DNA of 64,000 nucleotides from Vampirovibrionales bacterium (lineage in GTDB: Bacteria; Cyanobacteriota; Vampirovibrionia; Vampirovibrionales; JAGQHJ01). Positions 2,679-62,257 of the stretch are shown one piece after another. The stretch is from NCBI GenBank assembly GCA_025449835.1, contig JANWIO010000166.1, forward strand, positions 18,967 through 82,966. The letters are read 5' to 3'. The translations under genes and the position numbers were made by a program. A model generated the notes under the pieces. The model was not told where the DNA came from. It did not search any database and saw nothing but the letters and a program-made list of their open reading frames with translations. The first letter of the stretch is position 1. Each line of letters starts with the position of its first letter.

Positions 2679-3980
2679 TTAGGTGTTTTTCGAAGAAAAA
2701 GAAGGCGCTCGGCGGTACACAAAAATTCCTCGCACCGGCTCCATTTCTAAAAATTTCTGAACCTGCCCCATGGTTTCTTTTGAAATTTCACAATCTTTGG
2801 GCAAAATTAAAACCCCCTTCATGGTTTTTAAATCTCGTGAGAGAACCATCCCTGGCATCATATCCCGGGCATTAATTTCCACCTCAATGGCATCCTCATT
2901 GGCATGATTTCCCTCATTAATGTATTGCGTAAATGCCGTTACAATAGCTGGGTCAAATTCTTTTAAGGATCGCTCTTTTAAAAACCGCAGCACTTTTTCA
3001 GGGGTTGTGGTGGAGAAAACCGCTCTTTCGTTCATTGCTTTATCGTAGGCATCTACAACGGCAATAATACGAGAGCCCAACGGAATTTGCTCTCCTCTAA
3101 GTTTATCCGGGTAACCGTTTCCATCAAACCGTTCGTGGTGATGACGCACAATGACGGCCACCTCATTTAAATTGGCCATCATGCCAATAATAGACTCGCC
3201 TAACATCACGTGGCGACGAAGCAGCTCTTGTTCTGCCGGTTTTAAGAATGCATCTCGCTTGAGTAAAATTTCAACAGGGACGCCAATTTTTCCAATATCG
3301 TGAAGGGTTGCAGCAATCTCAACCTCAATCAGCTCTTCTCCTGATCGCCCCAATTGTTGCGCAACCGCCTTACACAATGTAGCAACTCGTTTGGAATGGC
3401 TCCCAATAATGGGACTATGCAATTCTGAGAGTTTTGCCATCACCTGAATCGAGCTGAGAAAGCTTTTCTGTAGGGCCTTATTGAGTAGCGAAATCTGCTG
3501 TGTACGCTCTACAACTTTGTCTTCCAGATTTTTATTTAAATCTTTCAATTCTAAATTTTGTTCTTGAGTCAACGCTTCCAAACGTTTATTTTCAGAAACC
3601 AGCTCATAATATCCCACGGCTTGACGCAAGGTCAGCCGCATATCTTCATCATCCCAAGGTTTGGTTAAAAATCGATAAACCGCCCCTTCATTAATGGCGC
3701 TAATCGCCGCCTGGGTGTCTGCATAGCCCGTTAATAAAATCCGAACCGTATCGGGAGACAAACGTCGAACCTCCGCTAAAAGCTGGGTTCCTTCCATGCC
3801 AGGCATCCGTTGGTCAGAAACCACCACGGCATAGTCTTGTTGAGATATCATCTTTAAAGCCTCTTCAGGTGAAGTGGTCGTCTCTATCTCAAAACTTTCA
3901 TGATGCAACAGACGTTTGAGTGCATTAAGAATATTAATCTCATCATCAATGAATAAAATCCGTTGCATCGTCATCCGCAA
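2679..3980 (-). CDS. Response regulator with REC receiver plus HD-GYP c-di-GMP phosphodiesterase domain (RpfG-like)
   Basis: N-terminal ILFIDDEINILNALKRLL receiver. HD motif HDIGKIGVP and canonical HHERFDGNGYP motif. Last gene of a tightly packed minus-strand operon. Confidence 0.85.
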   Translation of the reverse strand: MRMTMQRILFIDDEINILNALKRLLHHESFEIETTTSPEEALKMISQQDYAVVVSDQRMPGMEGTQLLAEVRRLSPDTVRILLTGYADTQAAISAINEGAVYRFLTKPWDDEDMRLTLRQAVGYYELVSENKRLEALTQEQNLELKDLNKNLEDKVVERTQQISLLNKALQKSFLSSIQVMAKLSELHSPIIGSHSKRVATLCKAVAQQLGRSGEELIEVEIAATLHDIGKIGVPVEILLKRDAFLKPAEQELLRRHVMLGESIIGMMANLNEVAVIVRHHHERFDGNGYPDKLRGEQIPLGSRIIAVVDAYDKAMNERAVFSTTTPEKVLRFLKERSLKEFDPAIVTAFTQYINEGNHANEDAIEVEINARDMMPGMVLSRDLKTMKGVLILPKDCEISKETMGQVQKFLEMEPVRGIFVYRRAPSFSSKNT

Positions 3981-3983
3981 TTA

Positions 3984-5204
3984 TTATCCTATCCTAGAAG
4001 CCAAGGTTTCACCCAACCAAGCTTCTAAACGCTCCAGATGAACCGAATGGTTGATGGTTGTTTTGTTCTCATTTTGCCATTTTGCAAAATTTAAAACAGG
4101 CAAATGGGAGCGATAAATAAATTCTTGTAATGTAGGTGACACCACTTCATCTATAATAACACCGGCTAAGGCTTGTTCATTATTAATATCCAATGAGGTC
4201 ACCACATGGTATCCCAAACGCTGGAGTACCATGGAAACAAACCCTTCTTCAACAGAGTTTTTCAGTAAAACTGCAACCCGATTCGAAGGAATATCCTCCG
4301 TTTCTTTGACATTCAGCGGTTTCGCCACCAAATCAAAGAAGACTTCCGCCTTTTGAATTTCGGTCGGTAAATCCACCAACAATTGAAACACATGATCTGG
4401 CAGCACTTTTTCAACGGCCAGTAATTGCATAAAATCCATTTTAACGTGGGGATCACCACTCGCACCTACACGAGCAATTTTAGCCACATTATCGGCCACT
4501 TGAATCAAGTTCACCATCCGACCTTCATGGCCATCTTGACCTTTTAAAACCGGTTGTTTTTGGGGATGGGAAGAATGATGATCTGCAACCGCCTGAATAA
4601 ATATATGAGGCAATTTCCAATGCTCACATAACTTGCCACCCAAAGCGGCATGATCAATGCCAAACGCTTCCCGCTCCAAGGAAATCAAAGATTTCTCACC
4701 CACCTCCGCTTTTTTAAGCAATTCAATATATTGCTCTGTGAAATATTCCATAAAAATGGCCCGCCCGATGTCATGAATTAGCCCGGATGTATAAGCCTCC
4801 TCAGGGTTTGGAATTCGAAATAGCGGGCTCAGAATCCTTGAAGAGCAAGCTACCCCTAAAGAATGTCGCCAAAAATCTTCTCGATTAAAAGAAACGTCCG
4901 GCACATTTTTATGAAAAAATTCAAAAACCGAAATCCCCAATGACAGATTTTTAACCCCTTGAAACCCCAAAATCATTACCGCCTGAGAAATGGTACTGAC
5001 GCGATGGGAAAGCCCATAAAAAGCTGAATTGGACACACGAAGCACTTTGGTGGTTAAAGCCTGATCACCGGATATGGTTTGGGTAATATCACGAATATCC
5101 GTATTGGGATCATCTGCCAACTGAAATAATCGCCCCACAGAAGAGGGTAAAGGAGGCAATGATTGTATTTTAAACAACACATCCCGAATAACTTTATTTT
5201 CCAT
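3984..5204 (-). CDS. HDOD-domain signalling protein with a C-terminal receiver-like region
   Basis: HDOD signature (TKVLRVSNSAFYGLSHRVSTISQAVMILGFQGVKNLSL). Lies 3 bp upstream of the HD-GYP gene and overlaps the upstream REC gene by 11 nt. Confidence 0.8.
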   Translation of the reverse strand: MENKVIRDVLFKIQSLPPLPSSVGRLFQLADDPNTDIRDITQTISGDQALTTKVLRVSNSAFYGLSHRVSTISQAVMILGFQGVKNLSLGISVFEFFHKNVPDVSFNREDFWRHSLGVACSSRILSPLFRIPNPEEAYTSGLIHDIGRAIFMEYFTEQYIELLKKAEVGEKSLISLEREAFGIDHAALGGKLCEHWKLPHIFIQAVADHHSSHPQKQPVLKGQDGHEGRMVNLIQVADNVAKIARVGASGDPHVKMDFMQLLAVEKVLPDHVFQLLVDLPTEIQKAEVFFDLVAKPLNVKETEDIPSNRVAVLLKNSVEEGFVSMVLQRLGYHVVTSLDINNEQALAGVIIDEVVSPTLQEFIYRSHLPVLNFAKWQNENKTTINHSVHLERLEAWLGETLASRIG

Positions 5205-6006
5205 TCAAACAATCCTCCATCACAAGGATACACCCCCGTAGGGTATTCCGTTCTTGTAAAGACTTAATCCGTAATCGAAGCTTTTGCCCTTGAATTTGAA
5301 AAGGGGATATTTCTTGGACCAGGTTCCGATCCATACATTGCCTCACCATATTCACAACGTCAGTCGGAAAAATCTCCTGAATATCCATCCCAACTGCCAT
5401 GGGACAGAGGGCCACAAATCGGCTCCGAATCATTTCATTGGTAAAAACCACCATACCTTCTTCACTTACCCCAATAACAGGAACCGGTAGCTTTTCCAAA
5501 ATCTCCTGTGAAAGCTGCAACGCTTTAGTTCGTTCAGCCACAGCCTCCTCTAAACGATCATTTAAAGTACGCAGTTTTTCATTTTGAACTTGAATCTGCT
5601 CCATCAGCAAGCGGTTTTCCAACATCAAATCATAGTGGGCTAAGCATTGGTTTATAGAAACCTTCAATTCTTCGTCATTCCAGGGTTTGGTTAAAAACCG
5701 ATAAATTTCACCCTTGTTAATGGCATCCAAAATAACGCTGACGTCCGCATAACCTGAAAGAACAACCCGCACCGTATCTGGAGAAACTTCTTTGACTTTT
5801 TGAAGAAAGGCAGTCCCCATCATCTCTGGCATCATTTGATCAGAGAGTACCAGGTGAACTGGCTGTTTTTCAATCAATGCAATCCCTTCTAAACCACTAT
5901 TTGCCGTAAGTAAGTTATACTCTTCCTTACGAAGTAAGCGTTTGAGGGCGTTTAAGATGTTGATTTCATCATCAACACAGAGAACGGTTTTTCGATCGGT
6001 CTTCAT
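5194..6006 (-). CDS. Response-regulator receiver protein with coiled-coil and PAS-like C-terminal region
   Basis: VLCVDDEINILNALKRLL receiver with conserved Asp and Lys positions. ATGA start/stop overlap with the upstream histidine kinase. Confidence 0.75.
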   Translation of the reverse strand: MKTDRKTVLCVDDEINILNALKRLLRKEEYNLLTANSGLEGIALIEKQPVHLVLSDQMMPEMMGTAFLQKVKEVSPDTVRVVLSGYADVSVILDAINKGEIYRFLTKPWNDEELKVSINQCLAHYDLMLENRLLMEQIQVQNEKLRTLNDRLEEAVAERTKALQLSQEILEKLPVPVIGVSEEGMVVFTNEMIRSRFVALCPMAVGMDIQEIFPTDVVNMVRQCMDRNLVQEISPFQIQGQKLRLRIKSLQERNTLRGCILVMEDCLNGK

Positions 6007-6980
6007 AATGGCTCATTGGTTTCAATTGGTAATTTGATGCTAAACGTTGTACCTTCACCCACCTTACTTTCCACATCAATGGTTCCGTGATGTTTTTGAA
6101 TAATCCCGTAAGAAATTGAAAGGCCCAGCCCAGTTCCGGTTCCCACAGGCTTGGTGGTATAAAAGGGGTTAAATATGTGGGACATATGTTTTTCCGGAAT
6201 ACCCACACCAGTATCTGAAATACGAATGACAATATGGGTATCTGTTGCTTCCGTCTCTATGATAATTTCCCCCTTTTCAGGAATGGCTTGCGCTGCATTC
6301 ACCAAAAGATTCATCAAAACCTGATTTAGCTGCCCCGGATAACACAGAATAGAAGGGACTTCTCCAAGATTTGTCGTCACTTGACATTTGTATTTCAACT
6401 CATTCCACACCATTTTTAAGGTATCTTGTATCCCATCATTCACATTGGCTTCTTTTAACTCAGACTCATCCAGACGGGCAAAGCTTTTTAAGTTTTGAAC
6501 AATGTCTTTAACCCGATGTAACCCTTGTTGAGACTCTAAAATCAAGGCATCAACATCCCCCATAGCATAATTAAGATCTTCCTCCTCACAAACTTTATGA
6601 ATCGCCTCTAACAGAGCTTGAATTTCATCTGCATGGCCTTCTTGATAGTGGGTTACCAACGTATCATACTGGGCAATAAGATCTTTAAAAGTGGTGACAT
6701 ATTCCATCAAGGTGCCCAAGTTCGACATGACAAATCCCACGGGATTATTAATTTCATGGGCAACCCCCGCAGCCAGTTGTCCTAACGAGGCCATTTTTTC
6801 TGAGTGAACGAGTTGAGCTTGATTTTCTTTCAGTTTCTCGTGGGCATGATGCAATTCAGAGGTTTTTTCTTCCAACAACGATTCGGCCCGTTGCCGTAAA
6901 GCTCTTTCCCATTGAAGAGCCTCTTCTAAGGATTCAAATGTTTGAGATTTCTCTACCAAATGCTTGGCCATCGAACGCAC
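6003..6980 (-). CDS. Soluble sensor histidine kinase (coiled coil, HisKA, HATPase_c)
   Basis: H-box AAGVAHEINNPVG, then N-box, G1 and G2 (GTGLGLSIS). No TM segments. First gene of the HK/REC/HDOD/HD-GYP operon. Confidence 0.85.
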   Translation of the reverse strand: MRSMAKHLVEKSQTFESLEEALQWERALRQRAESLLEEKTSELHHAHEKLKENQAQLVHSEKMASLGQLAAGVAHEINNPVGFVMSNLGTLMEYVTTFKDLIAQYDTLVTHYQEGHADEIQALLEAIHKVCEEEDLNYAMGDVDALILESQQGLHRVKDIVQNLKSFARLDESELKEANVNDGIQDTLKMVWNELKYKCQVTTNLGEVPSILCYPGQLNQVLMNLLVNAAQAIPEKGEIIIETEATDTHIVIRISDTGVGIPEKHMSHIFNPFYTTKPVGTGTGLGLSISYGIIQKHHGTIDVESKVGEGTTFSIKLPIETNEPL

Positions 6981-7268
6981 TCCAATGCTTAACGCATCCT
7001 AAAATAAAATTGTGCCCAGGGTGAGTCAGTCACCTGCCAAATCTCAAATGAGTCACAACTTCTGTAGAGGTTATCGTCATTTGTTGAATTGACTTTAAAA
7101 ATTTGAAAAAAGAAGGTAACATCCCATTTTTTGGTACTCACAAAACGATTCAAAAATAATTCTTTTTACCTTTTAAGCTTAACAGGCAGCCTTGTTCAAC
7201 AAAGAAGCCCTCCTCTGATAAGAAGGGCTTCATATGAATTTAAGGATAAGCTTCGTAAACTACGCTGC

Positions 7269-14659: not shown

Positions 14660-15529
14660 GTGCCGATAGTTGTAAATACCAATATTGCATCTTTAATTGC
14701 ACAACAAAATTTATCAGTGAATACCAATAACGTTAATGGTTCACTGGAAAAATTATCCTCCGGCTATAAAATCAATCATGCCTCTGACGATCCAGCAGGA
14801 TTAAGCATCTCAGAAACACTTAATAGCCAGATTTCCGGGATCCAAACAGCTTTGCAAAACGCCCAAGAGGGAAACAGCATTTTGCAAGTTGCAGAAGGAA
14901 CTTTAAGTGTTATCGGTGATAACCTCCAACGGATTCGAGAGCTAACCGTTGAAGCTGCTAACGATACCAACAGTAGCACTCAGCGGGCAGCCCTTGCCAG
15001 TGAAATTAAGGCTCGCTTAAATGACAACCAACGCATGGTTCAAGCGGCACAATTTAATGGCATTAATCTGCTAACGGGATCAGCCGTCAGTGCTCGCCTT
15101 CAAATTGGACCCGATGCAAGCATTGCCGACAATACCATTAACATTGCCAGTGTCCTCGCCACGGCCACAGCAACAGCCATTGGTATTCTGGGAGCTGCCA
15201 CTTCCACAAAATGGGGAACTATCGGCAGCATTAACATTACCAATGGTAGCGTTGCCAGAAGCTTCTTAGGTGAGATAGATAAAGCTATTCAAGCCATCTC
15301 TTCAAGACGCACATTGATTGGTGCTTACCAAAACCAGTTAAGCAGCGCCATCTCCAATTTACAGTTGGGTTCACAGAACCTGACCTCCTCAGAATCCAAT
15401 ATCCGAGATGTGGATGTTGCTGCAGAAAGCGCTAAATTAACCCAATCTCAAATCTTACAACAGGCATCCGTTAGTATCCTGACACAGGCCAATCAAACCC
15501 CCTCAATGGTTCTTAAACTACTACAGTAA
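14660..15529 (+). CDS. fliC: Flagellin (copy 1 of 6, 289 aa, GTG start), the most divergent paralog
   Basis: Conserved flagellin D0/D1 termini (MPIVVNTNIASL... and ...LQQASVSILTQANQTP..LKLLQ). AAGGAG SD 9 nt upstream. Confidence 0.9.
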   Translation: MPIVVNTNIASLIAQQNLSVNTNNVNGSLEKLSSGYKINHASDDPAGLSISETLNSQISGIQTALQNAQEGNSILQVAEGTLSVIGDNLQRIRELTVEAANDTNSSTQRAALASEIKARLNDNQRMVQAAQFNGINLLTGSAVSARLQIGPDASIADNTINIASVLATATATAIGILGAATSTKWGTIGSINITNGSVARSFLGEIDKAIQAISSRRTLIGAYQNQLSSAISNLQLGSQNLTSSESNIRDVDVAAESAKLTQSQILQQASVSILTQANQTPSMVLKLLQ

Positions 15530-15634
15530 CCCTTACATAACCATAAGGAAAGCCCCATGAATACAACCCCCTAAGTTATACCCGCTCCCTCCCATGAACC
15601 TGGTCCATGCCCCAAATCATCACTGAACCAGACT

Positions 15635-16075
15635 CATGTGAGGACCTCCAAAGTTTTCACATGACCCCAGTATCTGCCCACATTAAACCTCAACATTAAC
15701 CCTTCGTGGATGGATACCCAACTCAATAACACCTGTAAAACGCTTCTGTGCATTAGCGTGGCGACCATCAAATTAAAAATAAAGATGCTGTCGACACCAG
15801 CTTCATGACTCAGATACCACTTTACAGGCTCAAAGAACCTCTTTCATGACTGAAAAGGATGAAAGCCTGGGCGCTAAAACGCTCCCGGGATGGGGTTCCC
15901 TACAATAAAATACCGAAACCCTTATATGTGCCTGATTCAGGGTGCCTTGGGCATCATTTTTTGAATCAGCCCCATGTGAGGATTCTTCGGACCTCTCACA
16001 TGACCCGATGTAAAACCGAGTTCGTGCCACTTGGCATGGATGTTTAAACCCAAACCGTTTGAACCGGCTTTACAT
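15635..16075 (+). repeat. Structured intergenic region with two copies of a CATGTGAGGA...CACATGACCC hairpin motif and further inverted repeats
   Basis: Copy A 15635-15667 and copy B 15973-16006 share 10-nt flanks that form 7-8 bp stems. Adjacent inverted repeats CTGATTCA/TGAATCAG (15933-15970) and GATGTAAA/TTTACATC (16007-16075). Confidence 0.5.
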
Positions 16076-16271
16076 CAAATTCATCAAGAATAAACCCCAT
16101 GTCTTATTTGGCATGAATGGATTAGAAATAAAGTTTTGTCTCTATTTCTACCCAGATCAAGCCTTTATAAGGCATTTTGAAAGAACCAACCTAACTCATA
16201 ATACACAACACGTTTGGAAAAACGCCACTTGACAAGGATGGAAAGTGAGAAAAAGCAAAAGGAGTTGAACT

Positions 16272-17114
16272 ATGCCACTCGTTATTAATACAAACGTAAA
16301 TTCATTAAATGCCCAACGGCTCTTGTCACAAAACACGATGAATCTGTCTAAAGATTTAGAGCAATTGGCCTCTGGTTATCGGATTAACCATGCCAGCGAT
16401 GATGCCGCAGGATTACAGATTTCTGAAAATTTTACTGCCCAAATCCGAGGCACTGAACAAGCCATTAACAATGCACAAGATGGCCTTAACCTCTTGTCTG
16501 TTGCAGAAGGTACCTTGAGCGTTGTGGCAAACAACCTGCAACGGATCCGGGAGCTCGCTGTGGAAGCTGCCAACGATGTGAACGGTTCAACCCAAAGATC
16601 TGCTATTAAGCAAGAAATTGATGCCCGAATCGCCGATATCAACCGAATGACCAAAGCAACACAATTTAACGGTGTCAATGTTCTTCAAAAGATCCCTAAT
16701 GTCAGCCTTAGACTACAGGTGGGTGCCAATGGTGTTGCATCACAAGACACCATCAATATCGCTTCTGCACTGGGAAGTGCAACCGCTACGGGACTTGGCC
16801 TTACAGCCACAGCCAATATGATTTCATCTAACAGTAATGCTCGGGCATTTTTGGCCAATGTAGATAGTGCTATGAATAACCTATCCAGCAGAAGAGCGGT
16901 AATCGGTTCATTCCAAAACCGATTACAAAGCGCTATTGATAACTTACAAATTGAAGATCAAAACTTCCAAGCTTCTGAATCTCAAATTAGAGACGTGAAT
17001 GTGGCCAAAGTTACGGCCGATCTTTCTAAAAACCAGATTTTACAACAAGCCTCTGTCAGCATCTTGGCGCAAGCAAATCAATTGCCGGCTCTGGCACTTA
17101 AATTAATCGGGTAA
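16272..17114 (+). CDS. fliC: Flagellin (copy 2 of 6, 280 aa)
   Basis: Flagellin N- and C-terminal helices. About 93% aa identity to copy 3 with many synonymous nucleotide differences. Confidence 0.9.
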   Translation: MPLVINTNVNSLNAQRLLSQNTMNLSKDLEQLASGYRINHASDDAAGLQISENFTAQIRGTEQAINNAQDGLNLLSVAEGTLSVVANNLQRIRELAVEAANDVNGSTQRSAIKQEIDARIADINRMTKATQFNGVNVLQKIPNVSLRLQVGANGVASQDTINIASALGSATATGLGLTATANMISSNSNARAFLANVDSAMNNLSSRRAVIGSFQNRLQSAIDNLQIEDQNFQASESQIRDVNVAKVTADLSKNQILQQASVSILAQANQLPALALKLIG

Positions 17115-17137
17115 GCCTGTTGTTTACCCATTTTTTA
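17109..17137 (+). terminator. Probable intrinsic terminator of flagellin 2
   Basis: GGGTAA-gcctgttgt-TTACCC followed by ATTTTTT; overlaps the stop codon. Confidence 0.55.
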
Positions 17138-17284
17138 TACCCAATCACTTACATAACTTAGAAAGGAGAAACAGATAAGACCTAAAATCACCTCATTTAC
17201 ATTACAGTACGTTACTTGTGTTTAACAAAAATACCTCATTATTAACAAGGATGGAAATAATAAGAAAGCAAAAGGAGTTGTACT

Positions 17285-18127
17285 ATGCCACTCGTTATTA
17301 ATACCAATGTCAATTCATTAAACGCTCAGCGACTCTTGTCGCAAAACACCATGAATCTCTCCAAAGACCTAGAGCAATTAGCCTCTGGTTATCGTATTAA
17401 CCATGCCGGTGATGACGCCGCAGGTCTCCAGATTTCTGAAAATTTTACTGCCCAAATCAAAGGGACAGAGCAAGCCATTAACAACGCACAGGATGGCCTT
17501 AACCTCTTGTCTGTTGCTGAAGGCACCCTAAGTGTTGTTCAGGATAACCTCCAGCGGATCCGCGAGCTAACTGTACAAGCGGCTAACGATGTTAACGGCT
17601 CCTCTCAAAGAACCGCTATTAAGCAAGAAATTGATGCCCGAATCGCCGACATCAACCGAATGACCAAAGCCACACAGTTTAACGGTGTCAATATTCTTAA
17701 AAGCATTGCAAATGTGAGTTTTCGCCTGCAAGTTGGTGCCAATGGTGTTGCATCCCAGGATACCATCAACATTGCATCAGCCTTGGGTAGTGCAACAGCC
17801 ACGGGGCTTGGATTAAAGGCAACGACCAATATGATTTCATCCAACAGCAATGCCCGTGCTTTTTTAGCCAATGTGGATAGTGCCATGAATAACCTATCCA
17901 GCAGAAGAGCGGTTATCGGTTCATTCCAAAACCGACTGCAAAGTGCCGTGAGTAACTTACAAATTGCAGATCAAAACTTCCAGGCCTCTGAATCTCAGAT
18001 CAGAGACGTTAATGTGGCCAAAGTTACTGCCGATCTCTCTAAAAACCAGATTCTGCAACAAGCTTCTGTCAGTATCTTGGCACAAGCAAACCAATTGCCG
18101 GCTTTGGCACTCAAACTTATCGGCTAA
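17285..18127 (+). CDS. fliC: Flagellin (copy 3 of 6, 280 aa)
   Basis: Flagellin termini. Leader shares the AAGGATGGAAA...AAGGAG motif with copy 2. Confidence 0.9.
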   Translation: MPLVINTNVNSLNAQRLLSQNTMNLSKDLEQLASGYRINHAGDDAAGLQISENFTAQIKGTEQAINNAQDGLNLLSVAEGTLSVVQDNLQRIRELTVQAANDVNGSSQRTAIKQEIDARIADINRMTKATQFNGVNILKSIANVSFRLQVGANGVASQDTINIASALGSATATGLGLKATTNMISSNSNARAFLANVDSAMNNLSSRRAVIGSFQNRLQSAVSNLQIADQNFQASESQIRDVNVAKVTADLSKNQILQQASVSILAQANQLPALALKLIG

Positions 18128-18317
18128 TTATCGAGCTCATTTGGCTTAAAACGCCTGTCGATAAATTTATTCTCACCTCATCAATGAGAAAAAAACAACA
18201 AAGGAGAATCTCCCTAATGACTTAAAACAATAATCCATCTGATTGAAACCTCTCACGTGTGGTGCAATCAGCCACTTACTTAAATTTGAATCAGGAAATA
18301 ACAGTAGGAGAAAAACT

Positions 18318-19157
18318 ATGCCACTGGTTATTAATACGAATACTAACTCATTAAACGCACAGCGGCTCTTGTCACAAAACACCATGAATCTCTCCAAAGA
18401 CTTAGAGCAGTTGGCCTCCGGTTATCGAATCAATCACGCATCGGACGACGCGGCAGGGCTACAAATCTCCCAGAATTTGCAGTCTCAATACCGTGGTATT
18501 GAGCAGGCCGTTCGAAACTCACAAGATGGACTTAACCTCTTGTCTGTTGCTGAAGGCACCTTGAGTGTTGTTCAAGATAACCTCCAGCGGATACGAGAAC
18601 TCGCTGTACAAGCAGCCAACGATGTTAACGGTACATCTCAAAGAACCGCTATTAAACAAGAGATAGATGCTCGAATTGCTGACATTAATCGAATGACCAA
18701 AGCCACGCAATTTAACGGTGTTAATATCCTTCAAAGCATCAAAGGCAGCTTCAATCTTGAAGTGGGTGCCAATGGTGCAGCATCCACAAATACCATTAAC
18801 ATTGCTTCAGCACTAGGTAGTGCAACAGCCACAGGGCTTGGACTAAAGGCAACCACCAATATGATTGCCGCCAACAGTAATGCTAGAGCCTTTTTAGGAA
18901 ATGTTGATTCAGCCATTGCAAATGTGTCAACAAGACGTGCAACCATTGGTTCATTCCAAAACCGGCTGCAAAGTGCTATTGCAAACTTACAAATTGCAGA
19001 TCAAAACTTCCAAGCTTCTGCGTCTCAAATTAGAGATGTGAATGTGGCTGCAGTCACTGCGGATCTGTCTCGAAATCAGATTCTGCAGCAGGCTTCCGTC
19101 AGCATTCTGTCTCAAGCAAATCAACTACCGGCCTTAGCACTCAAACTTATCGGATAA
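18318..19157 (+). CDS. fliC: Flagellin (copy 4 of 6, 279 aa); start corrected to ATG 18318
   Basis: MPLVINTN start preceded by a TAGGAG SD. The extra 25 codons of track ORF 18243 lack an RBS and break the paralog alignment. Confidence 0.9.
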   Translation: MPLVINTNTNSLNAQRLLSQNTMNLSKDLEQLASGYRINHASDDAAGLQISQNLQSQYRGIEQAVRNSQDGLNLLSVAEGTLSVVQDNLQRIRELAVQAANDVNGTSQRTAIKQEIDARIADINRMTKATQFNGVNILQSIKGSFNLEVGANGAASTNTINIASALGSATATGLGLKATTNMIAANSNARAFLGNVDSAIANVSTRRATIGSFQNRLQSAIANLQIADQNFQASASQIRDVNVAAVTADLSRNQILQQASVSILSQANQLPALALKLIG

Positions 19158-19315
19158 AAATATACACAAACAATCTTTAATAACAAAATAACCTGAAAGG
19201 AGGCTGATTATCCCGGAAAAATAGAACTCTTAGATTATCTAAATCCACACTTTACAAAACACAAACACTTTTTTTTGGAAGGAAAAGTGAAAAAACAACA
19301 TAAAGGAGTTAAATT

Positions 19316-20155
19316 ATGCCACTTGTTATTAATACAAACGTAAACTCGTTAAATGCACAGCGGCTCTTGTCACAAAACACCATGAATCTCTCCAAAGACT
19401 TAGAGCAGTTGGCCTCCGGTTATCGAATCAACCACGCATCTGACGACGCAGCCGGGCTACAAATCTCCCAGAATCTGCAGTCTCAATACCGTGGTGTCGA
19501 GCAGGCCGTTCGAAACTCACAAGACGGGTTAAACCTCTTGTCTGTTGCTGAAGGTACCCTGAGTGTCGTTCAAGATAACCTCCAGCGGATCAGAGAGCTT
19601 GCTGTACAGGCGGCCAACGATGTGAACGGTACATCTCAAAGAACTGCTATTAAGCAAGAGATGGATGCCCGGATTGCTGACATCAACCGAATGACCAAAG
19701 CAACGCAATTTAACGGTGTTAATATCCTTCAAAGCATCAAAGGAAGCTTTAACATTCAAGTTGGTGCCAATGGTGCAGCATCCACAAACTCCATTAACAT
19801 TGCGTCTGCACTGGGTAGCGCAACAGCCACAGGCCTTGGCTTAAAGGCAACCGCAAATATGATTGCCGCCAACAGTAATGCCAGATCCTTTTTATCCAAT
19901 ATCGATACAGCCATTGCAAACGTCTCAACAAGACGTGCAACCATTGGTTCGTTTCAAAACCGGCTACAAAGTGCTATTGCAAACCTACAAATTGCTGACC
20001 AAAACTACCAAGCTTCTGCATCTCAAATTCGAGATGTGAACGTGGCTTCAGTCACTGCGGATCTGTCTCGAAACCAGATTCTGCAGCAGGCTTCCGTCAG
20101 CATTCTGTCTCAAGCAAATCAACTACCGGCCTTAGCACTCAAACTCATTGGTTAA
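19316..20155 (+). CDS. fliC: Flagellin (copy 5 of 6, 279 aa)
   Basis: Near-identical to copy 4, including a ~78-nt identical tract near the 5' end. Confidence 0.9.
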   Translation: MPLVINTNVNSLNAQRLLSQNTMNLSKDLEQLASGYRINHASDDAAGLQISQNLQSQYRGVEQAVRNSQDGLNLLSVAEGTLSVVQDNLQRIRELAVQAANDVNGTSQRTAIKQEMDARIADINRMTKATQFNGVNILQSIKGSFNIQVGANGAASTNSINIASALGSATATGLGLKATANMIAANSNARSFLSNIDTAIANVSTRRATIGSFQNRLQSAIANLQIADQNYQASASQIRDVNVASVTADLSRNQILQQASVSILSQANQLPALALKLIG

Positions 20156-20180
20156 TCATCTATAACCAGTGCTTAAGCCT

Positions 20181-20212
20181 GCAGGAGACCCTTTTGGGGT
20201 CTCCTGTTTTTT
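20181..20212 (+). terminator. Strong rho-independent terminator after flagellin 5
   Basis: CAGGAGACCC-tttt-GGGGTCTCCTG followed by TTTTTT. Confidence 0.85.
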
Positions 20213-20501
20213 CACGCATTTCCATCTTCCTTCTTTACAACCCTTTGTTTTTAAAATTTAAACATAGATTGTAACAGATTGTTTCAATTTCCACTGAATG
20301 ATTTATGTTTCCGATGACCCTGTCGAAATCACATCAGGGACACCTCAAAAATGTTCCCACCCCAAGGGCACATCCCTGTAAAAGCACCTACCATAGAATT
20401 ATATGATGCAGCTTTAGGCTAACTCGGCTGGGTTAGAATGGCTTTTGCAGTGCGTTTCCTTAGGGTTCATGGATGAAATAATATTGTAAGGAGACAATAC
20501 T

Positions 20502-21341
20502 ATGTCACTAGTCGTGAATACAAACATTTCTTCTTTGAACGCTCAAAGAAACCTTGCTAATAACACAATGAGCCTTAACCGATCGTTAGAGCGGTTATCC
20601 TCCGGTTTACAGATTAACCATGCTTCTGATAACGCTGCAGGGTTACAAATTTCTCAAAATTTGCAAGCCCAAGTTAATGGTGTCAACCAAGCAGTTTCCA
20701 ATGCACAGGATGGCAACAATCTTCTGTCTGTTGCTGAGGGTACCTTGAGTGTTGTTCAAGATAACCTCCAACGGATTCGGGAATTGACTGTGCAAGCCGC
20801 CAACGATGTAAACGGTACATCTCAAAGAACTGCTATTAAGCAAGAGATCGATTCCCGGATTGCTGACATCAACCGAATGACCAAAGCGACCCAATTTAAT
20901 GGTATCAATATCCTTCAAAGCATCAAAGGAAGCTTTAACATTCAAGTTGGTGCCAATGGTGCAGCATCCACAAACTCCATTAACATTGCTTCAGCACTGG
21001 GTAGCGCAACAGCCACGGGGCTTGGGTTAAAAGCAACCACCAATATGGTTGCTGCAAATAGTAATGCTAGGGCCTTTTTGGCCAATGTGGATACGGCCAT
21101 TTCAGCTGTCTCAACCCGAAGAGCAACGATCGGTTCTTATCAAAACCGGTTACAAAGTGCTATCAGTAACTTACAGATTACGTCTCAAAATTTCGCTGCT
21201 TCTGAATCTCAAATCAGAGACGTGAATGTCGCTTCAGAAACGGCAAACTTAACCCGTTCTCAAATTCTGCAGCAAGCTTCTGTAAGCATCTTGGCACAAG
21301 CAAACCAATCATCAGCTCTGGCACTCAAACTCATCGGTTAG
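20502..21341 (+). CDS. fliC: Flagellin (copy 6 of 6, 279 aa), mosaic: divergent N-terminus, central block identical to copy 5
   Basis: MSLVVNTNISSLNAQR... N-terminus. A ~63-nt block (20927-20989) is identical to 19741-19803 of copy 5. Confidence 0.9.
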   Translation: MSLVVNTNISSLNAQRNLANNTMSLNRSLERLSSGLQINHASDNAAGLQISQNLQAQVNGVNQAVSNAQDGNNLLSVAEGTLSVVQDNLQRIRELTVQAANDVNGTSQRTAIKQEIDSRIADINRMTKATQFNGINILQSIKGSFNIQVGANGAASTNSINIASALGSATATGLGLKATTNMVAANSNARAFLANVDTAISAVSTRRATIGSYQNRLQSAISNLQITSQNFAASESQIRDVNVASETANLTRSQILQQASVSILAQANQSSALALKLIG

Positions 21342-45315: not shown

Positions 45316-45493
45316 TCATGAACATCGTTTTTTCTATAGTAACACGGAAAAGCGCTCTGTGACTATGGACCAACTGCTGTATTCCGTTTATGCAGAAGCG
45401 CCTTTTTCAAAAAATGAGGCAAGATGCCTCAAATGTAAACGCCGCTTCATCAGGAATTACCCAAGAAGAGAGGTTCTGTACTAGAATAGAGTT

Positions 45494-47188
45494 ATGTTAA
45501 TCCGGTTGACCCTGCAAAATATTGCCATTATCGAAACCCTGGATCTGGAGTTTCAGGGGGGACTTAATGTGCTGACGGGCGAAACGGGGTCAGGGAAAAG
45601 CTTAATCCTAGAGGCGATTCATCGGGTATTTGATAAACGAACCAGTCCAAAAGACTTGTTGCGTCATGGCACCAGCCGAGGGCGCATTGAAATCACGTTT
45701 GACTTGAGTCGGATTCATAACCGGCAACAGATTGAAGCACTTCTTCAGGAAGCAGGCGTTGAACTGTTACCTGAAGAAAACGAATTGGTGTTGGGTCGGG
45801 AGTTTTCACTTTCCAGCAGTCGGTGTCGGGTGAACGGATGCCAAGTTCCTTTGGATCTGATGGCCCGATTAGGCACCTTGGTGATGGAAATTTATGGCCA
45901 GCATGATCTTCATGATCTTTTTTCCACAGCCCGTCAACGAGACTTGCTGGACAATTTAGGCGGAGATCCCTTATTAAAACTTCGCCAAGAAATTCGCCAA
46001 ACCTTTCGGGGACTTCAGAAATTAAAAGCCGAAATGAACGCCCTTAGGCAACAACAACAGGATCAGGAGCGTCAAATTGATTTTCTCACCTTCCAAATCC
46101 AAGAAATTGCTCAAGCGGAACTGATGGCCCCAGATGAAGATGAAGGCCTTCAAAAAGAGCGAGAAAGGCTAACCCATTGTGAGACTTTGCGTCAGGCGGT
46201 TTTAGCATCCAATTACGTTCTCCAGGGAGACGATCACGGCGAGACACCCTCTGTTTTTAAACTTTTGGGGCAGATTCAAAAAACATTAAGTCATGGAACA
46301 GCCTTGGATCCCCAACTCAACCGTTGGTACGAAAGCATGGCTGAGATTCAAGAGCAACTGAGAAGCATTGCGCATGAGTTTTCACACTATGAATCCTCCC
46401 TAGACAGCCGCCCTGAAAGAATGCAAGAAATTGTGGATCGCCTCGATACCTTGGAAAAACTCAAGCGAAAATATGGGGGATCTCTGGAGTCTGTTTTAAA
46501 AACCGCCGTTTCTCTCGAAGCGCAGCTTGAAGCCTTGCAACAAAATGACATTTATTTAACCCAGCTTGAAACCCAATGCCAAAACGAAGAAAGCCGCTAT
46601 ACCCAGCTTTGCCTCGCCTTATCCGAACTACGGCAAAAACTGGCACAGTCCTTAGAAGAAACCATTTCTGAAGAACTCAAAACCCTCATGCTGCCAGCAG
46701 CCCAATTTCAAATTCAAATAATCCCCAGCCCAGCCACTGAAAATGGCCAAGATCAAATTACATTTTTATTCTCAGCCAATCCCGGCGAACCCTTAAAACC
46801 CCTTTCTCAGGTTGCTAGCGGCGGCGAACTGGCCAGACTGATGCTGGCATTAAAAATCCAAACAGCTCATGCTGATTCCTTAACCACCCTGGTTTTAGAT
46901 GAAATTGACACCGGAATGAGTGGCTTAGCCGTAAGAACCGTTGCGGAAAAATTATGTGCCCTCCAACATCATTGTCAGATTATTGTGGTGACCCATCAGC
47001 CTATTGTGGCAGCCAAGGCCCAATGGCATTTACATGTTCAAAAGCACCTCCATCAGGATAAAGTAGAGGTTAATGTTCATCCATTAACCCACCGGGAGGA
47101 GCGGAAAACTGTTTTAAGCCAATTGGCCTCTGGTTTTACAGAAGGGGACGCCATTACGGCGCAATTTATTGAACAGCTTTTAGTGTAA
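45494..47188 (+). CDS. recN: DNA repair protein RecN
   Basis: N-terminal Walker A GETGSGKSLILEAI, long coiled coil, C-terminal signature/Walker B region. Confidence 0.9.
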   Translation: MLIRLTLQNIAIIETLDLEFQGGLNVLTGETGSGKSLILEAIHRVFDKRTSPKDLLRHGTSRGRIEITFDLSRIHNRQQIEALLQEAGVELLPEENELVLGREFSLSSSRCRVNGCQVPLDLMARLGTLVMEIYGQHDLHDLFSTARQRDLLDNLGGDPLLKLRQEIRQTFRGLQKLKAEMNALRQQQQDQERQIDFLTFQIQEIAQAELMAPDEDEGLQKERERLTHCETLRQAVLASNYVLQGDDHGETPSVFKLLGQIQKTLSHGTALDPQLNRWYESMAEIQEQLRSIAHEFSHYESSLDSRPERMQEIVDRLDTLEKLKRKYGGSLESVLKTAVSLEAQLEALQQNDIYLTQLETQCQNEESRYTQLCLALSELRQKLAQSLEETISEELKTLMLPAAQFQIQIIPSPATENGQDQITFLFSANPGEPLKPLSQVASGGELARLMLALKIQTAHADSLTTLVLDEIDTGMSGLAVRTVAEKLCALQHHCQIIVVTHQPIVAAKAQWHLHVQKHLHQDKVEVNVHPLTHREERKTVLSQLASGFTEGDAITAQFIEQLLV

Positions 47189-60577: not shown

Positions 60578-61129
60578 TCACATAATTAACTGCTGAACCG
60601 CTTTAAACTGGGGATGTTGTGAGGTTCGCATCAGTTCAAAAAGGGCCATTTCTACACTACTGGGGATAGCGCCTAACTGTGCAAGCTTTCTGAGGGCAAC
60701 ATCATAATTCCGTGGATACCGAGTGCCAATGGCATCTTCAATTAAATAAACCTGATATCCAAGTTCCAGAAGCCGGACGACTGTTTGATTTACACAGATA
60801 TGGGCTTCAATCCCACACACTAGAATTTGCTTTCGCTCAAATCCTAAAAGTTTTTCTTCAATCAAAGGCTCATCACAGCAACCAAAATGGTTTTTTTCAA
60901 AGACCAGATCCGTGTCGGTAAGCGTATTTTTAAGTTCTAAAACCGTATGACCCAAGCCTTTTGGGTATTGTTCACTCACAATCACCGGTACCCCCAGATA
61001 ATGGCACCCCCTGATCATCTGCTGGGTTCCTTGCACCACCTGATCCGCATTGAATAAAATCGGTTTAAATTTATCCTGGATGTCAATCACCAGCAGTAAA
61101 GCATTATCGATAGAGAGAAGTTGGCTCAA
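60578..61129 (-). CDS. Isochorismatase-family cysteine hydrolase
   Basis: ALLLVIDIQDKF start and catalytic Cys context (LVCGIEAHICV). Confidence 0.8.
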   Translation of the reverse strand: MSQLLSIDNALLLVIDIQDKFKPILFNADQVVQGTQQMIRGCHYLGVPVIVSEQYPKGLGHTVLELKNTLTDTDLVFEKNHFGCCDEPLIEEKLLGFERKQILVCGIEAHICVNQTVVRLLELGYQVYLIEDAIGTRYPRNYDVALRKLAQLGAIPSSVEMALFELMRTSQHPQFKAVQQLIM

Positions 61130-61216
61130 AATTCAAAACTCCATAAACGCTTCATTCTATTATAAATCAAGAAATGCCCTTCCCCCAATATCCACACACA
61201 AGGCCAGCAAAAAGAA

Positions 61217-61242
61217 ATCACACTGTTCCAACACAGTGTGAT
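61217..61242. promoter_or_regulatory. Perfect 10-bp inverted repeat ATCACACTGT-tccaac-ACAGTGTGAT in the divergent isochorismatase/ssb intergenic region
   Basis: Read directly from the sequence; contains a CTGT-N6-ACAG core. Confidence 0.45.
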
Positions 61243-61660
61243 AAACAAACGAGGTGGTTGTTGTGGATCATTTTTAGTATAAGAGCGACTTTTATCTCAC
61301 CTCATCCACCGAAGAGTTGAAGCTTGAGGAAGATCTCCAAAACCATTGCCATTTGCGGGAAAAAAGATATCTTTTTATCCCATTGAACCACTCGTGATGC
61401 TTCAAATACACGAATCTCAGACCTCCTTCAGGATGAATTTCTATAAAGTTTTGTATCATTTGTGAAAAATTTTTCTAAAAAAGCCCTAAAACACTTAATT
61501 TTATGTTCTATAAATCCTTGGGACAGAAGGATTTTAGGCCATTTTTAAAGTCATTCCAAGAATTCATCGAAAAACAAACTGTAGGGACTGCAATAGAAAA
61601 GATTTGCTTTTTCTCCCCTCTTATCAACCCTTCAACGCAGCAGTAACTCCTCGTAACGCC

Positions 61661-61688
61661 GCACAACAGATTTGTTGTGCTTTTTTTT
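61661..61688 (+). terminator. Orphan strong intrinsic terminator 155 nt upstream of ssb; candidate 3' end of an sRNA or leader attenuator
   Basis: GCACAACA-gattt-GTTGTGC followed by TTTTTTTT. No plus-strand CDS upstream. Confidence 0.6.
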
Positions 61689-61843
61689 GTCTTTATTTTA
61701 CGGCTTACACCTTAAGAAATACAAAAACCGCCTCTATTTTAACCCATCGGTCTATAATCGTCTGGGCAGAATGGATTTGCTGTTGAAGAATGCTTTACGT
61801 ATAATATACCATTCAGATACAGACAAAGAAAAAGGGCAGTGCC

Positions 61844-62257
61844 ATGCAAGAAAATGAAAAGTCTTCAGGGAATCTCAACAGTGTTGTCGTTGTGGGTCGT
61901 GCCGGACGCGATCCTGAGATTAAATATTTTGAATCTGGAAGCGTGAAAGCCACTTTTTCAATGGCCGTAGATCGAGTCAGCTCTAAAGAAAATCGAGAAA
62001 CCGATTGGTTTAATATTGAAGTGTGGGGACGAACCGCTGAAGTAGTGGGAGAATACCTTAAAAAAGGAAATCAAGCCGCTGTGGCCGGTCGGTTAAGTGT
62101 GCGCAAATGGAATGATGACGCTGGCAATGAACGAGATTATCTGTCTGTGGTTGCCACTGATGTTCGCTTTTTAGGAAGCCGCCGGGATTCTGAAGGGTCT
62201 GGTAACTATGGAAGCTATAATAATAAAGCTGATAGCGGTCAAAGAGCTCCGTTTTAA
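61844..62257 (+). CDS. ssb: Single-stranded DNA-binding protein
   Basis: OB-fold motifs (NSVVVVGRAGRDPE, WFNIEVWGR). Gly/Ser-rich tail ending ...APF. Confidence 0.85.
   Translation: MQENEKSSGNLNSVVVVGRAGRDPEIKYFESGSVKATFSMAVDRVSSKENRETDWFNIEVWGRTAEVVGEYLKKGNQAAVAGRLSVRKWNDDAGNERDYLSVVATDVRFLGSRRDSEGSGNYGSYNNKADSGQRAPF

Follow-up and report, generated by a model that had tools for sequence, protein, structure and literature searches.

The gap between an isochorismatase-family gene and ssb

The subject of this analysis is a 714-base pair (bp) gap, positions 61130-61843, in a 64,000-nucleotide (nt) stretch of contig JANWIO010000166.1 from a Vampirovibrionales bacterium (hereafter, the window is this whole stretch). 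The gap separates an isochorismatase-family gene on the minus strand from ssb on the plus strand, as identified with Pfam and the list of open reading frames (ORFs). Judging from its sequence, the locus is probably organized as four transcription units, namely the two flanking genes and, between them, two free-standing genes for small non-coding RNAs (sRNAs). The relevant features are the following.

60578-61129, minus strand: isochorismatase-family gene (Pfam)
61159-61188, minus strand: predicted isochorismatase promoter, TTGGGG-18 nt-TATAAT, read from the sequence
61209-61216, minus strand: U-tract of the predicted minus-strand sRNA (terminator scan)
61217-61242, minus strand: terminator hairpin of the predicted minus-strand sRNA, previously described as a palindrome (terminator scan, conservation of pairing)
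61269-61209, minus strand: predicted minus-strand sRNA, 61 nt, consisting of GAUCCACAACAACCACCUCGUUUGUUU, the hairpin and UUUCUUUUU; conserved in four genomes
61276-61281, minus strand: -10 hexamer TATACT of the predicted minus-strand sRNA, invariant in 4/4 loci; predicted start at about 61269
61301-61314, minus strand: upstream motif CTTCGGTGGATGAG, exactly 19 nt upstream of the -10 hexamer
61545-61573, plus strand: putative sigma-28 (FliA)-type promoter of the plus-strand sRNA, TTAAAGTCA-N12-ATCGAAAA; module conserved in six loci
61581-61688, plus strand: predicted plus-strand sRNA, about 108 nt; 5' end from promoter prediction, uncertain by several nt
61624-61688, plus strand: conserved core of the plus-strand sRNA, aligning in six loci
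61634-61656, plus strand: invariant 23-mer AACGCAGCAGUAACUCCUCGUAA, containing UAACUCCUCGU, which resembles the anti-Shine-Dalgarno sequence; identical in six loci
61661-61688, plus strand: intrinsic terminator of the plus-strand sRNA, previously described as an orphan terminator (terminator scan, alignment)
61777-61805, plus strand: predicted ssb promoter, TTGCTG-17 nt-TATAAT, conserved in locus L085 and in locus L001, which has no sRNA
61844-62257, plus strand: ssb (Pfam and ORF list), with the ATG at 61844

A first-pass annotation had drawn attention to a palindrome and to a plus-strand terminator in this gap, and both are present where it placed them. Positions 61217-61242 read ATCACACTGT-tccaac-ACAGTGTGAT, a perfect inverted repeat with arms of 10 bp and a loop of 6 nt, and positions 61661-61688 read GCACAACA-gatt-TGTTGTGC plus T8, 155 nt short of the ssb ATG. 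That annotation missed that, on the minus strand, the palindrome runs straight into TTCTTTTT and is recognized by the terminator scan as a minus-strand intrinsic terminator; the gap therefore has two outward-facing terminators. It also joined the two features into a single element, whereas the comparisons described below assign them to two separate, divergent genes: on the evidence of sequence conservation, the palindrome and the orphan terminator are likely to be the terminators of two independent sRNA genes. Within the window, the numbers are unremarkable, with two terminator-like sites per 2 kb being at the chance level (1.8 expected in the terminator scan) and the palindrome core occurring once versus 0.43 expected occurrences; these features are judged real because they are conserved in other genomes, not because of within-window statistics. 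The assertion that no coding sequence precedes the plus-strand terminator is literally incorrect, given that a 47-amino acid (aa) ORF (61503-61646) ends 15 nt upstream, but it holds in substance because this ORF is not conserved and begins upstream of the predicted transcript start.

Conservation of the two RNA units and the competing interpretations

The plus-strand element was identified in six loci: the window, L085, L088, L091, L002 and L083. A blastn comparison of the gap with 80 related loci produced one significant match, in L002 (40 nt at 95% identity, upstream of ssb); a scan of metagenomes with the core 19-mer detected one true copy, in L083, along with three chance matches inside genes; and L085, L088 and L091 were added from contigs that encode close SSB homologues. 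The 23-mer AACGCAGCAGTAACTCCTCGTAA is identical in 6/6 loci, and the terminator that closes the block has an invariant GCACAAC/GTTGTGC stem and a T-run in all six, with a loop of 4-11 nt that varies in sequence. Upstream of the conserved core, the six loci differ in both sequence and length. The predicted RNA is pyrimidine-rich and largely unstructured, with the invariant GCAGCAGUAACUCCUCGUAA located six nt ahead of the terminator, and each of the orthologues carries one to three CCUC-type tracts. The genomic contexts of the element vary: it precedes ssb in the window, L085, L088 and L002, a guanylate-kinase-like gene in L091, and in L083 it lies between mtnA and asnB, away from ssb.

Alignment of the window with the syntenic locus L085 revealed a second conserved island, which holds the palindrome and is also present in L088 and L091; all four of these loci are syntenic. 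Read along the minus strand, the order is the same in 4/4 loci: CTTCnGTGGATGAG, 19 variable nt, TATACT, 6 variable nt, invariant GATCCACAACAACCACCTCGTTTGT, 2 variable nt, the hairpin and TTTCTTTT. This alternation of invariant and variable segments is the conservation pattern expected of a promoter followed by an RNA of 61-62 nt. The predicted start, at about 61269, lies 7 nt past TATACT, and the 6 nt between this hexamer and GATCC vary. The RNA would begin with an invariant 25-nt unpaired region, GAUCCACAACAACCACCUCGUUUGU, found in the four loci; in 3/4 predicted folds, the 27-nt 5' end is unpaired and is followed by the hairpin. The distance between CTTCnGTGGATGAG and the -10 hexamer is fixed in 4/4 loci and the sequence of the spacer varies, from which we infer that the upstream motif CTTCGGTGGATGAG is either the -35 region or an activator site.

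In both elements, the invariant blocks are retained even though the SSB proteins of the compared genomes are only 64-73% identical, and the flanking intergenic DNA fails to align between the window and L085. Covariance models built from the two alignments (R1 for the plus-strand and R2 for the minus-strand element) were searched against 90 sources, namely the window and 89 loci from Melainabacteria, Sericytochromatia and Nostoc, 1.46 Mb altogether. R1 retrieved the six plus-strand loci at 84-93 bits and no other match, and R2 retrieved the four minus-strand loci at 87-93 bits and nothing else significant; thus, both models match only their training sequences in this set, and neither matched the further loci L092-L094. 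So far, both families appear to be restricted to one clade.

The strand on which the palindrome acts is revealed by its substitutions. The 3' arm of the hairpin is ACAGUGUGAU in the window, GCGGUGUGAU in L085, ACGGUGUGAU in L088 and GCAGUGUGAU in L091. On the minus strand, 9/9 counted pairs are paired in 100% of the sequences, with a U-A pair replaced by U·G in two of the four, and L085 and L091 have G·U at the tenth pair as well; read on the plus strand, these substitutions give C·A mismatches. The minus-strand folds range from -13.3 to -14.6 kcal/mol (z scores of -2.3 to -3.1), whereas for L085 the plus-strand fold is a 7-bp stem of -9.1 kcal/mol with a z score of +0.26, compared to -2.6 for the minus strand.

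These observations bear directly on the proposal of the first-pass annotation that the palindrome is a LexA-like SOS box, or, more generally, a site at which some dimeric repressor controls the divergent promoters. The window copy is indeed a perfect 10-bp inverted repeat with a CTGT...ACAG core, and this lineage encodes LexA, with lexA located next to ssb in L093. However, the palindrome is imperfect, with asymmetric arms, in 3/4 genomes; the spacing between the ATCACAC and GTGTGAT cores is 12, 14, 13 and 13 nt across the four; the substitutions preserve pairing, as G·U, on just one strand; and a U-tract follows on the minus strand in 4/4. A protein operator is disfavoured because a dimeric DNA-binding protein needs symmetry and fixed spacing, and an RNA hairpin needs neither. 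Moreover, the hairpin is embedded in a unit consisting of a promoter, a 27-nt unpaired region, the hairpin and the U-tail, and it is located some 560 nt from the ssb promoter. The palindrome is unique in the 64 kb: a search allowing two mismatches found no other copy at a relevant place, including the region upstream of the recN-like gene at 45494. The SOS reading is rejected because no second copy exists in the window, before the recN-like gene or in the lexA-ssb spacer of L093, and we regard an operator of any kind as extremely improbable.

Two side observations concern the surroundings of the SOS genes. In L093 (9640-9940), lexA is divergent from ssb, and the 670-nt spacer contains three copies of a repeat of about 57 nt, AGAAGCACCGCATTnATCGAGCCCGTGCTCGCATnACGGAAAACGGGGCGAATGCCCCT. 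Upstream of the recN-like gene (45460-45495, ATG at 45494), the window contains GGTTCTGTACTAGAA, with adjacent GTTC and GTAC half-sites; GGTTCTGTACTAGAA is a possible LexA-type box of this lineage, unrelated to the palindrome.

Regarding the plus-strand terminator, the first-pass annotation had offered two options, a small RNA gene or a terminator-containing leader (attenuator) of ssb. The first option is borne out by the finding that the block ending in the terminator is unchanged in six genomes and across three gene neighbourhoods. In favour of the second option are the co-orientation of the element with the downstream gene in 6/6 loci and the identity of that gene as ssb in four of these. 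Yet, ssb has a predicted promoter of its own past the terminator, and L001 keeps this promoter while having no such element; in L083 the next gene is asnB, and in L091 it is guanylate-kinase-like; and the ssb genes of L001, L086, L087, L089 and L092-L094 have no plus-strand element. We conclude that the element is not an ssb leader because a -10 box of its own (TATAAT or TATAGT) is found between the terminator and the next start codon in 6/6 loci, the L001 promoter exists without the element and the ssb genes of relatives do without it; a leader or attenuator function is thus very improbable. The promoter of the L083 asnB gene, which lies downstream of the sRNA (5990-6045, minus strand; GTGACA-16-TATAGT), ends 7 nt before the ATG, and the asnB mRNA of this locus may be leaderless for this reason.

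The corresponding alternative for the minus-strand unit, a cis-acting terminated leader (attenuator) of the downstream isochorismatase/BNR-repeat operon, is harder to dismiss. In 4/4 genomes, 67-83 nt separate the unit from the isochorismatase start, which follows on the same strand, and only two of the four loci have a perfect TATAAT between its terminator and the gene. Nevertheless, a -10-like hexamer is present at this location in all four (TATAAT in the window and L085, TATACT in L091, TAAAAT in L088); no alternative antiterminator pairing is visible, since the 27-nt 5' region is predicted to be unpaired; and the linkage with the isochorismatase gene amounts to a single observation because the four cases share one syntenic block. 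In addition, the plus-strand twin with the same architecture is demonstrably not bound to one gene. More generally, the features expected of an attenuator, that is, no promoter after the terminator, a fixed downstream gene and an antiterminator fold, were not found: a -10 box follows the terminator in 6/6 plus-strand and 4/4 minus-strand loci. We therefore consider a leader function of the minus-strand unit quite improbable.

Coding explanations fare no better. The conserved blocks could encode small proteins, either in a plus-strand frame (LLWI..SI......HP.K) that lies over the minus-strand sRNA promoter or in ORFs of 47 aa and 55 aa. An open frame preceded by GAGGTGG does span 61258-61320 in all four genomes without a frameshift, and the 47-aa ORF ends 15 nt ahead of one terminator and the 55-aa ORF 50 nt ahead of the other. 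However, conservation in the LLWI frame is confined to the residues encoded over the TATACT box and the upstream motif, those in between change radically, and the length of the frame differs from 20 aa in the window to more than 60 aa in L085; an in-frame stop interrupts the 47-aa ORF in L002; and the 55-aa region does not align in L085. This explanation has hardly any chance of being correct. The candidates rejected for in-frame stops, absence of a start codon or lack of conservation were the 47-aa plus-strand ORF, the 52-aa and 55-aa minus-strand ORFs, a frame ending in ...LQRSSNSS* and the LLWI frame. All ORFs that overlap the plus-strand element, on either strand, are broken in L002, and the predicted plus-strand sRNA contains no ATG and no conserved ORF.

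Comparison with known RNA families produced no relevant hit. No Rfam family reached its gathering score in the window, relaxing the cut-off to E <= 10 for 60900-62100 and to E <= 5 for L002 and L083 brought up nothing relevant, and the best permissive match was a plant miRNA (26 bits versus a 100-bit threshold). ARAGORN found no tRNA or tmRNA in the gap, so the tmRNA tag suggested by GCAGCAGUAA was discarded.

Each of the two units thus has a predicted promoter and a terminator of its own, separate from those of its neighbours, as is characteristic of free-standing sRNA genes; both combine conserved non-coding sequence with a seed predicted to be accessible, and the plus-strand element additionally occurs in varied contexts. 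Three considerations weigh against this interpretation: the 5' and 3' ends of the transcripts as well as the expression of both sRNAs are deduced from sequence; the terminator stems are invariant or show only G·U changes, with no compensatory covariation; and the minus-strand element lies upstream of the same gene, on the same strand, in 4/4 syntenic loci.

Two further observations pertain to the surroundings of the minus-strand unit. The upstream region (61301-61320 in the window and its counterparts in L085, L088 and L091) is partly palindromic, with TCCAC-N6-GTGGA in L085 and L088 and the centre at about -43; a location near -43 is typical of class II activator sites. In L088 (810-1361), the adjacent isochorismatase gene is called in two pieces (108 and 71 aa), reflecting either a pseudogene or an assembly error.

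A candidate sigma-28 promoter and possible flagellin targets

All SSB relatives come from Melainabacteria/Vampirovibrionia-type metagenome-assembled genomes (the best at 74% identity), and the window encodes six tandem flagellin genes (14660-21341) with Flagellin_N and Flagellin_C domains identified by Pfam; together, these findings identify the source organism as a flagellated member of the non-photosynthetic cyanobacterial lineage. Flagella have been reported in this group (PMC3787301).

Upstream of the plus-strand RNA, about 60-130 nt from the 23-mer (about 60 nt in the window), a module with a fixed geometry, T(T/A)AAG, 16-17 nt and CGA(A/T)A, is present in 6/6 loci, with invariant (T)AAG and CGA cores. 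The published consensus of flagellar sigma-28 promoters consists of a -35 element TAAAGTTT, n11 and a -10 element GCCGATAA (PMC2859248). The window module, TAAAGTCA (6/8 positions), N12 and ATCGAAAA (5/8), is a partial rather than a perfect match to this consensus; in L083, the module reads TTAAGGGA, N11 and CCCGATAA (7/8). This module places the start of the plus-strand sRNA at about 61581 and sets its length at about 108 nt. The pattern TTAAAG-N16/17-CGAWA occurs three times in the window, compared to 0.18 expected, and only one of 100 shuffles reaches three occurrences. All three sites are intergenic and correctly oriented, preceding the first flagellin gene, a signalling operon and the plus-strand sRNA. 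The two promoters outside the gap and the candidate target site discussed below are the following.

7072-7098, minus strand: putative sigma-28-type promoter of the signalling operon (6980 down to 2679), near-consensus, TTAAAGTCA-N11-GACGATAA
14456-14482, plus strand: putative sigma-28-type promoter of the first of the six tandem flagellin genes, TTAAAG-N16-CGATAT
16247-16267, plus strand: candidate target of the plus-strand sRNA in the 5' untranslated region (UTR) and Shine-Dalgarno sequence of flagellin gene 2 (ATG at 16272)

The signalling operon (2679-6980) encodes a histidine kinase, a response regulator with a PAS domain, an HDOD protein and a response regulator with an HD-GYP domain (Pfam), which suggests that a signalling module, possibly linked to cyclic di-GMP, belongs to the flagellar regulon. 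The dependence of the plus-strand sRNA on FliA, for which the conserved module and the distribution of its matches argue, falls just short of an even chance in our estimate. Two other promoters were considered for this RNA: the position of the TATCAA-like hexamers of a sigma-70 promoter near the core is not constant in L088 and L091, and a CAAACT-type -10 element is possible but weaker than the sigma-28 candidate. No common fold was found in the conserved upstream module, and matches to the sigma-28 motif in Gastranaerophilales loci were discarded as lying inside coding sequence.

The full plus-strand sRNA was compared with the window because the sigma-28-type promoter pointed to flagella. Its longest perfect complement anywhere in the window is a 13-mer: sRNA positions 61603-61615 (UUUGCUUUUUCUC) can pair with 16247-16259 (GAGAAAAAGCAAA), directly 5' of the Shine-Dalgarno sequence of flagellin gene 2, a length of match that, against the six flagellin 5' UTRs, only one in 2000 dinucleotide-shuffled versions of the sRNA attains. 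The adjacent AGGAGUUG (8 nt) is complementary to the invariant UAACUCCU of the sRNA. Apart from the antisense strand of the sRNA gene itself, AGGAGTT(A/G) occurs in the window only at the Shine-Dalgarno sequences of flagellin genes 2, 3 and 5 (16260, 17273 and 19304). Flagellin mRNA is accordingly a tentative candidate target, and as such somewhat doubtful. For the minus-strand sRNA, no convincing target was found within the window.

Several findings count against the flagellar connection of the plus-strand sRNA. The window -10 element ATCGAAAA agrees with the consensus at only 5/8 positions, and the spacer is 12 rather than 11 nt; 5/6 flagellin genes have no recognizable sigma-28 motif; and there is no fliA gene within the window. 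The 13-nt complement to flagellin gene 2 is A/U-rich and falls in the half of the sRNA that lacks conservation between genomes, and the three AGGAGUU sites, being paralogous, do not count as independent. RNAduplex scans of the gene starts in the window were dominated by long-loop artefacts and were uninformative.

Several of the flagellin genes have a conserved 5' UTR block in common, ACAAGGAUGGAAA...AAAGGAG, which immediately precedes the start codon; its two GGA motifs are reminiscent of the CsrA-binding sites on the flagellin mRNAs of other bacteria.

Proposed mode of action and comparison with known small RNAs

Taken together, these observations suggest the following model. Both flanking genes would use their own sigma-70-type promoters, close to the start codons, and the two sRNA genes would lie between these promoters, transcribed away from each other, each with an outward-facing intrinsic terminator. 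Both RNAs present the same arrangement of a long unpaired stretch, CCUCGU, exactly six nt and the terminator stem, the plus-strand RNA reading ACUCCUCGU-AACGCC-stem and the minus-strand RNA CACCUCGU-UUGUUU-stem. Both CACCUC and CUCCUC are similar to the anti-Shine-Dalgarno end of 16S rRNA, and the genes in the window have strong GGAGG-type ribosome-binding sites. Both sRNAs may act in trans by base-pairing, with the CCUC motifs mimicking the anti-Shine-Dalgarno sequence and covering GGAGG-type ribosome-binding sites, which would block translation or alter mRNA stability; pairing with ribosome-binding regions is, we infer, the most economical mechanism for both. The targets of the plus-strand sRNA might include flagellin mRNAs. 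A more elaborate scenario, in which a FliA-dependent sRNA with a Yfr1-like ACUCCUC represses flagellin translation in the flagellated, non-photosynthetic members of the cyanobacteria while the head-to-head second anti-Shine-Dalgarno sRNA is under a different control, the two forming a joint post-transcriptional motility switch, is speculative and, in its entirety, unlikely.

The two genes appear to define two new families of sRNA genes, familiar in kind and limited to one clade, and a link of one of these, the plus-strand family, to the flagellar regulon is plausible. A literature search found no paper on Melainabacteria or Vampirovibrionia describing a small RNA. With their defined boundaries and invariant seeds, both genes are clean, testable candidates, and for the plus-strand sRNA a specific regulator, FliA, and a class of targets, the flagellins, are predicted. 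The methodological lesson is that a perfect palindrome in a divergent promoter region can be a terminator hairpin rather than an operator; only the cross-genome comparison, with its G·U changes and variable loop length, exposed this.

Among the known systems, functional analogues are provided by the RsaE/RoxS-type sRNAs of Gram-positive bacteria, in which unpaired pyrimidine-rich motifs, sometimes in several copies per RNA, pair with GGAGG-type sites. In sequence, structure and lineage, these are unrelated to the sRNAs described here, so that the analogy is functional only.

The regulatory side of the model resembles the sigma-28-dependent sRNAs that tune flagellar synthesis in E. coli (PMC10578931) and Campylobacter jejuni (CJnc170/FlmR, PMC11187230; CjNC1/CjNC4, PMC4626219), which are described as being made together with the late flagellar genes and feeding back on flagellar expression through base-pairing. 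The plus-strand sRNA, for its part, has a putative sigma-28-type promoter as well as complementarity to flagellin ribosome-binding regions. There is, however, no similarity in sequence or structure; the E. coli sRNAs are described as UTR-derived, whereas the plus-strand sRNA is predicted to be free-standing with its own terminator; and its FliA dependence and flagellin targeting are predictions from sequence.

The known family most similar in lineage and design is Yfr1/Yfr10, short sRNAs of the abundant type from photosynthetic cyanobacteria, with which the present RNAs share the phylum-level lineage. In Yfr1 and Yfr10, an unpaired, ultraconserved ACUCCUCACAC precedes the terminator, and its UCCU core is required for mRNA pairing (Voss et al. 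2007, PMC2190773; Lambrecht et al. 2019, PMC6778093). As in this family, where the motif starts from ACUCCUC, both sRNAs here have an unpaired CU-rich motif a few nt upstream of a GC-containing terminator hairpin with a U-tail, and, as with Yfr1 and Yfr10, there is more than one sRNA with a shared motif per genome. The 3' hairpin of 6-9 bp with a U-tail that characterizes Yfr1 has counterparts in both (7-8 bp and U8 in the plus-strand RNA, 10 bp and UUUCUUUUU in the minus-strand RNA), and the minus-strand RNA (61 nt) fits the Yfr1 size of 54-69 nt, in contrast to the plus-strand RNA (about 108 nt, predicted). The motif itself is ACUCCUCGUAA in the plus-strand RNA, matching 8/11 positions of ACUCCUCACAC, and CCACCUCGUUU in the minus-strand RNA; the published RNAMotif descriptor for Yfr1 (Voss et al. 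2007) allows 0 mismatches in the 11-mer, and no exact copy of it occurs in the window or in 1.47 Mb of loci. The 5' stem-loop of 5-10 bp right before the Yfr1 motif has no equivalent here: the six plus-strand orthologues have no such hairpin in common, and the 5' end of the minus-strand RNA is unpaired in 3/4 folds. The Yfr1 covariance model of Rfam does not match either. Because of the 11-mer mismatch, the missing 5' stem-loop, the length and the absence of an Rfam match, homology is doubtful and, for the plus-strand sRNA, distinctly unlikely; the resemblance is one of architecture and probable mode of action, and these RNAs cannot be filed as members of Yfr1. Should the ACUCCUC core nevertheless be homologous to that of Yfr1/Yfr10, this class of sRNAs would predate the split between Melainabacteria and oxygenic cyanobacteria. 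The two genes may also provide a link with the network of Yfr1/Yfr10 in photosynthetic cyanobacteria.

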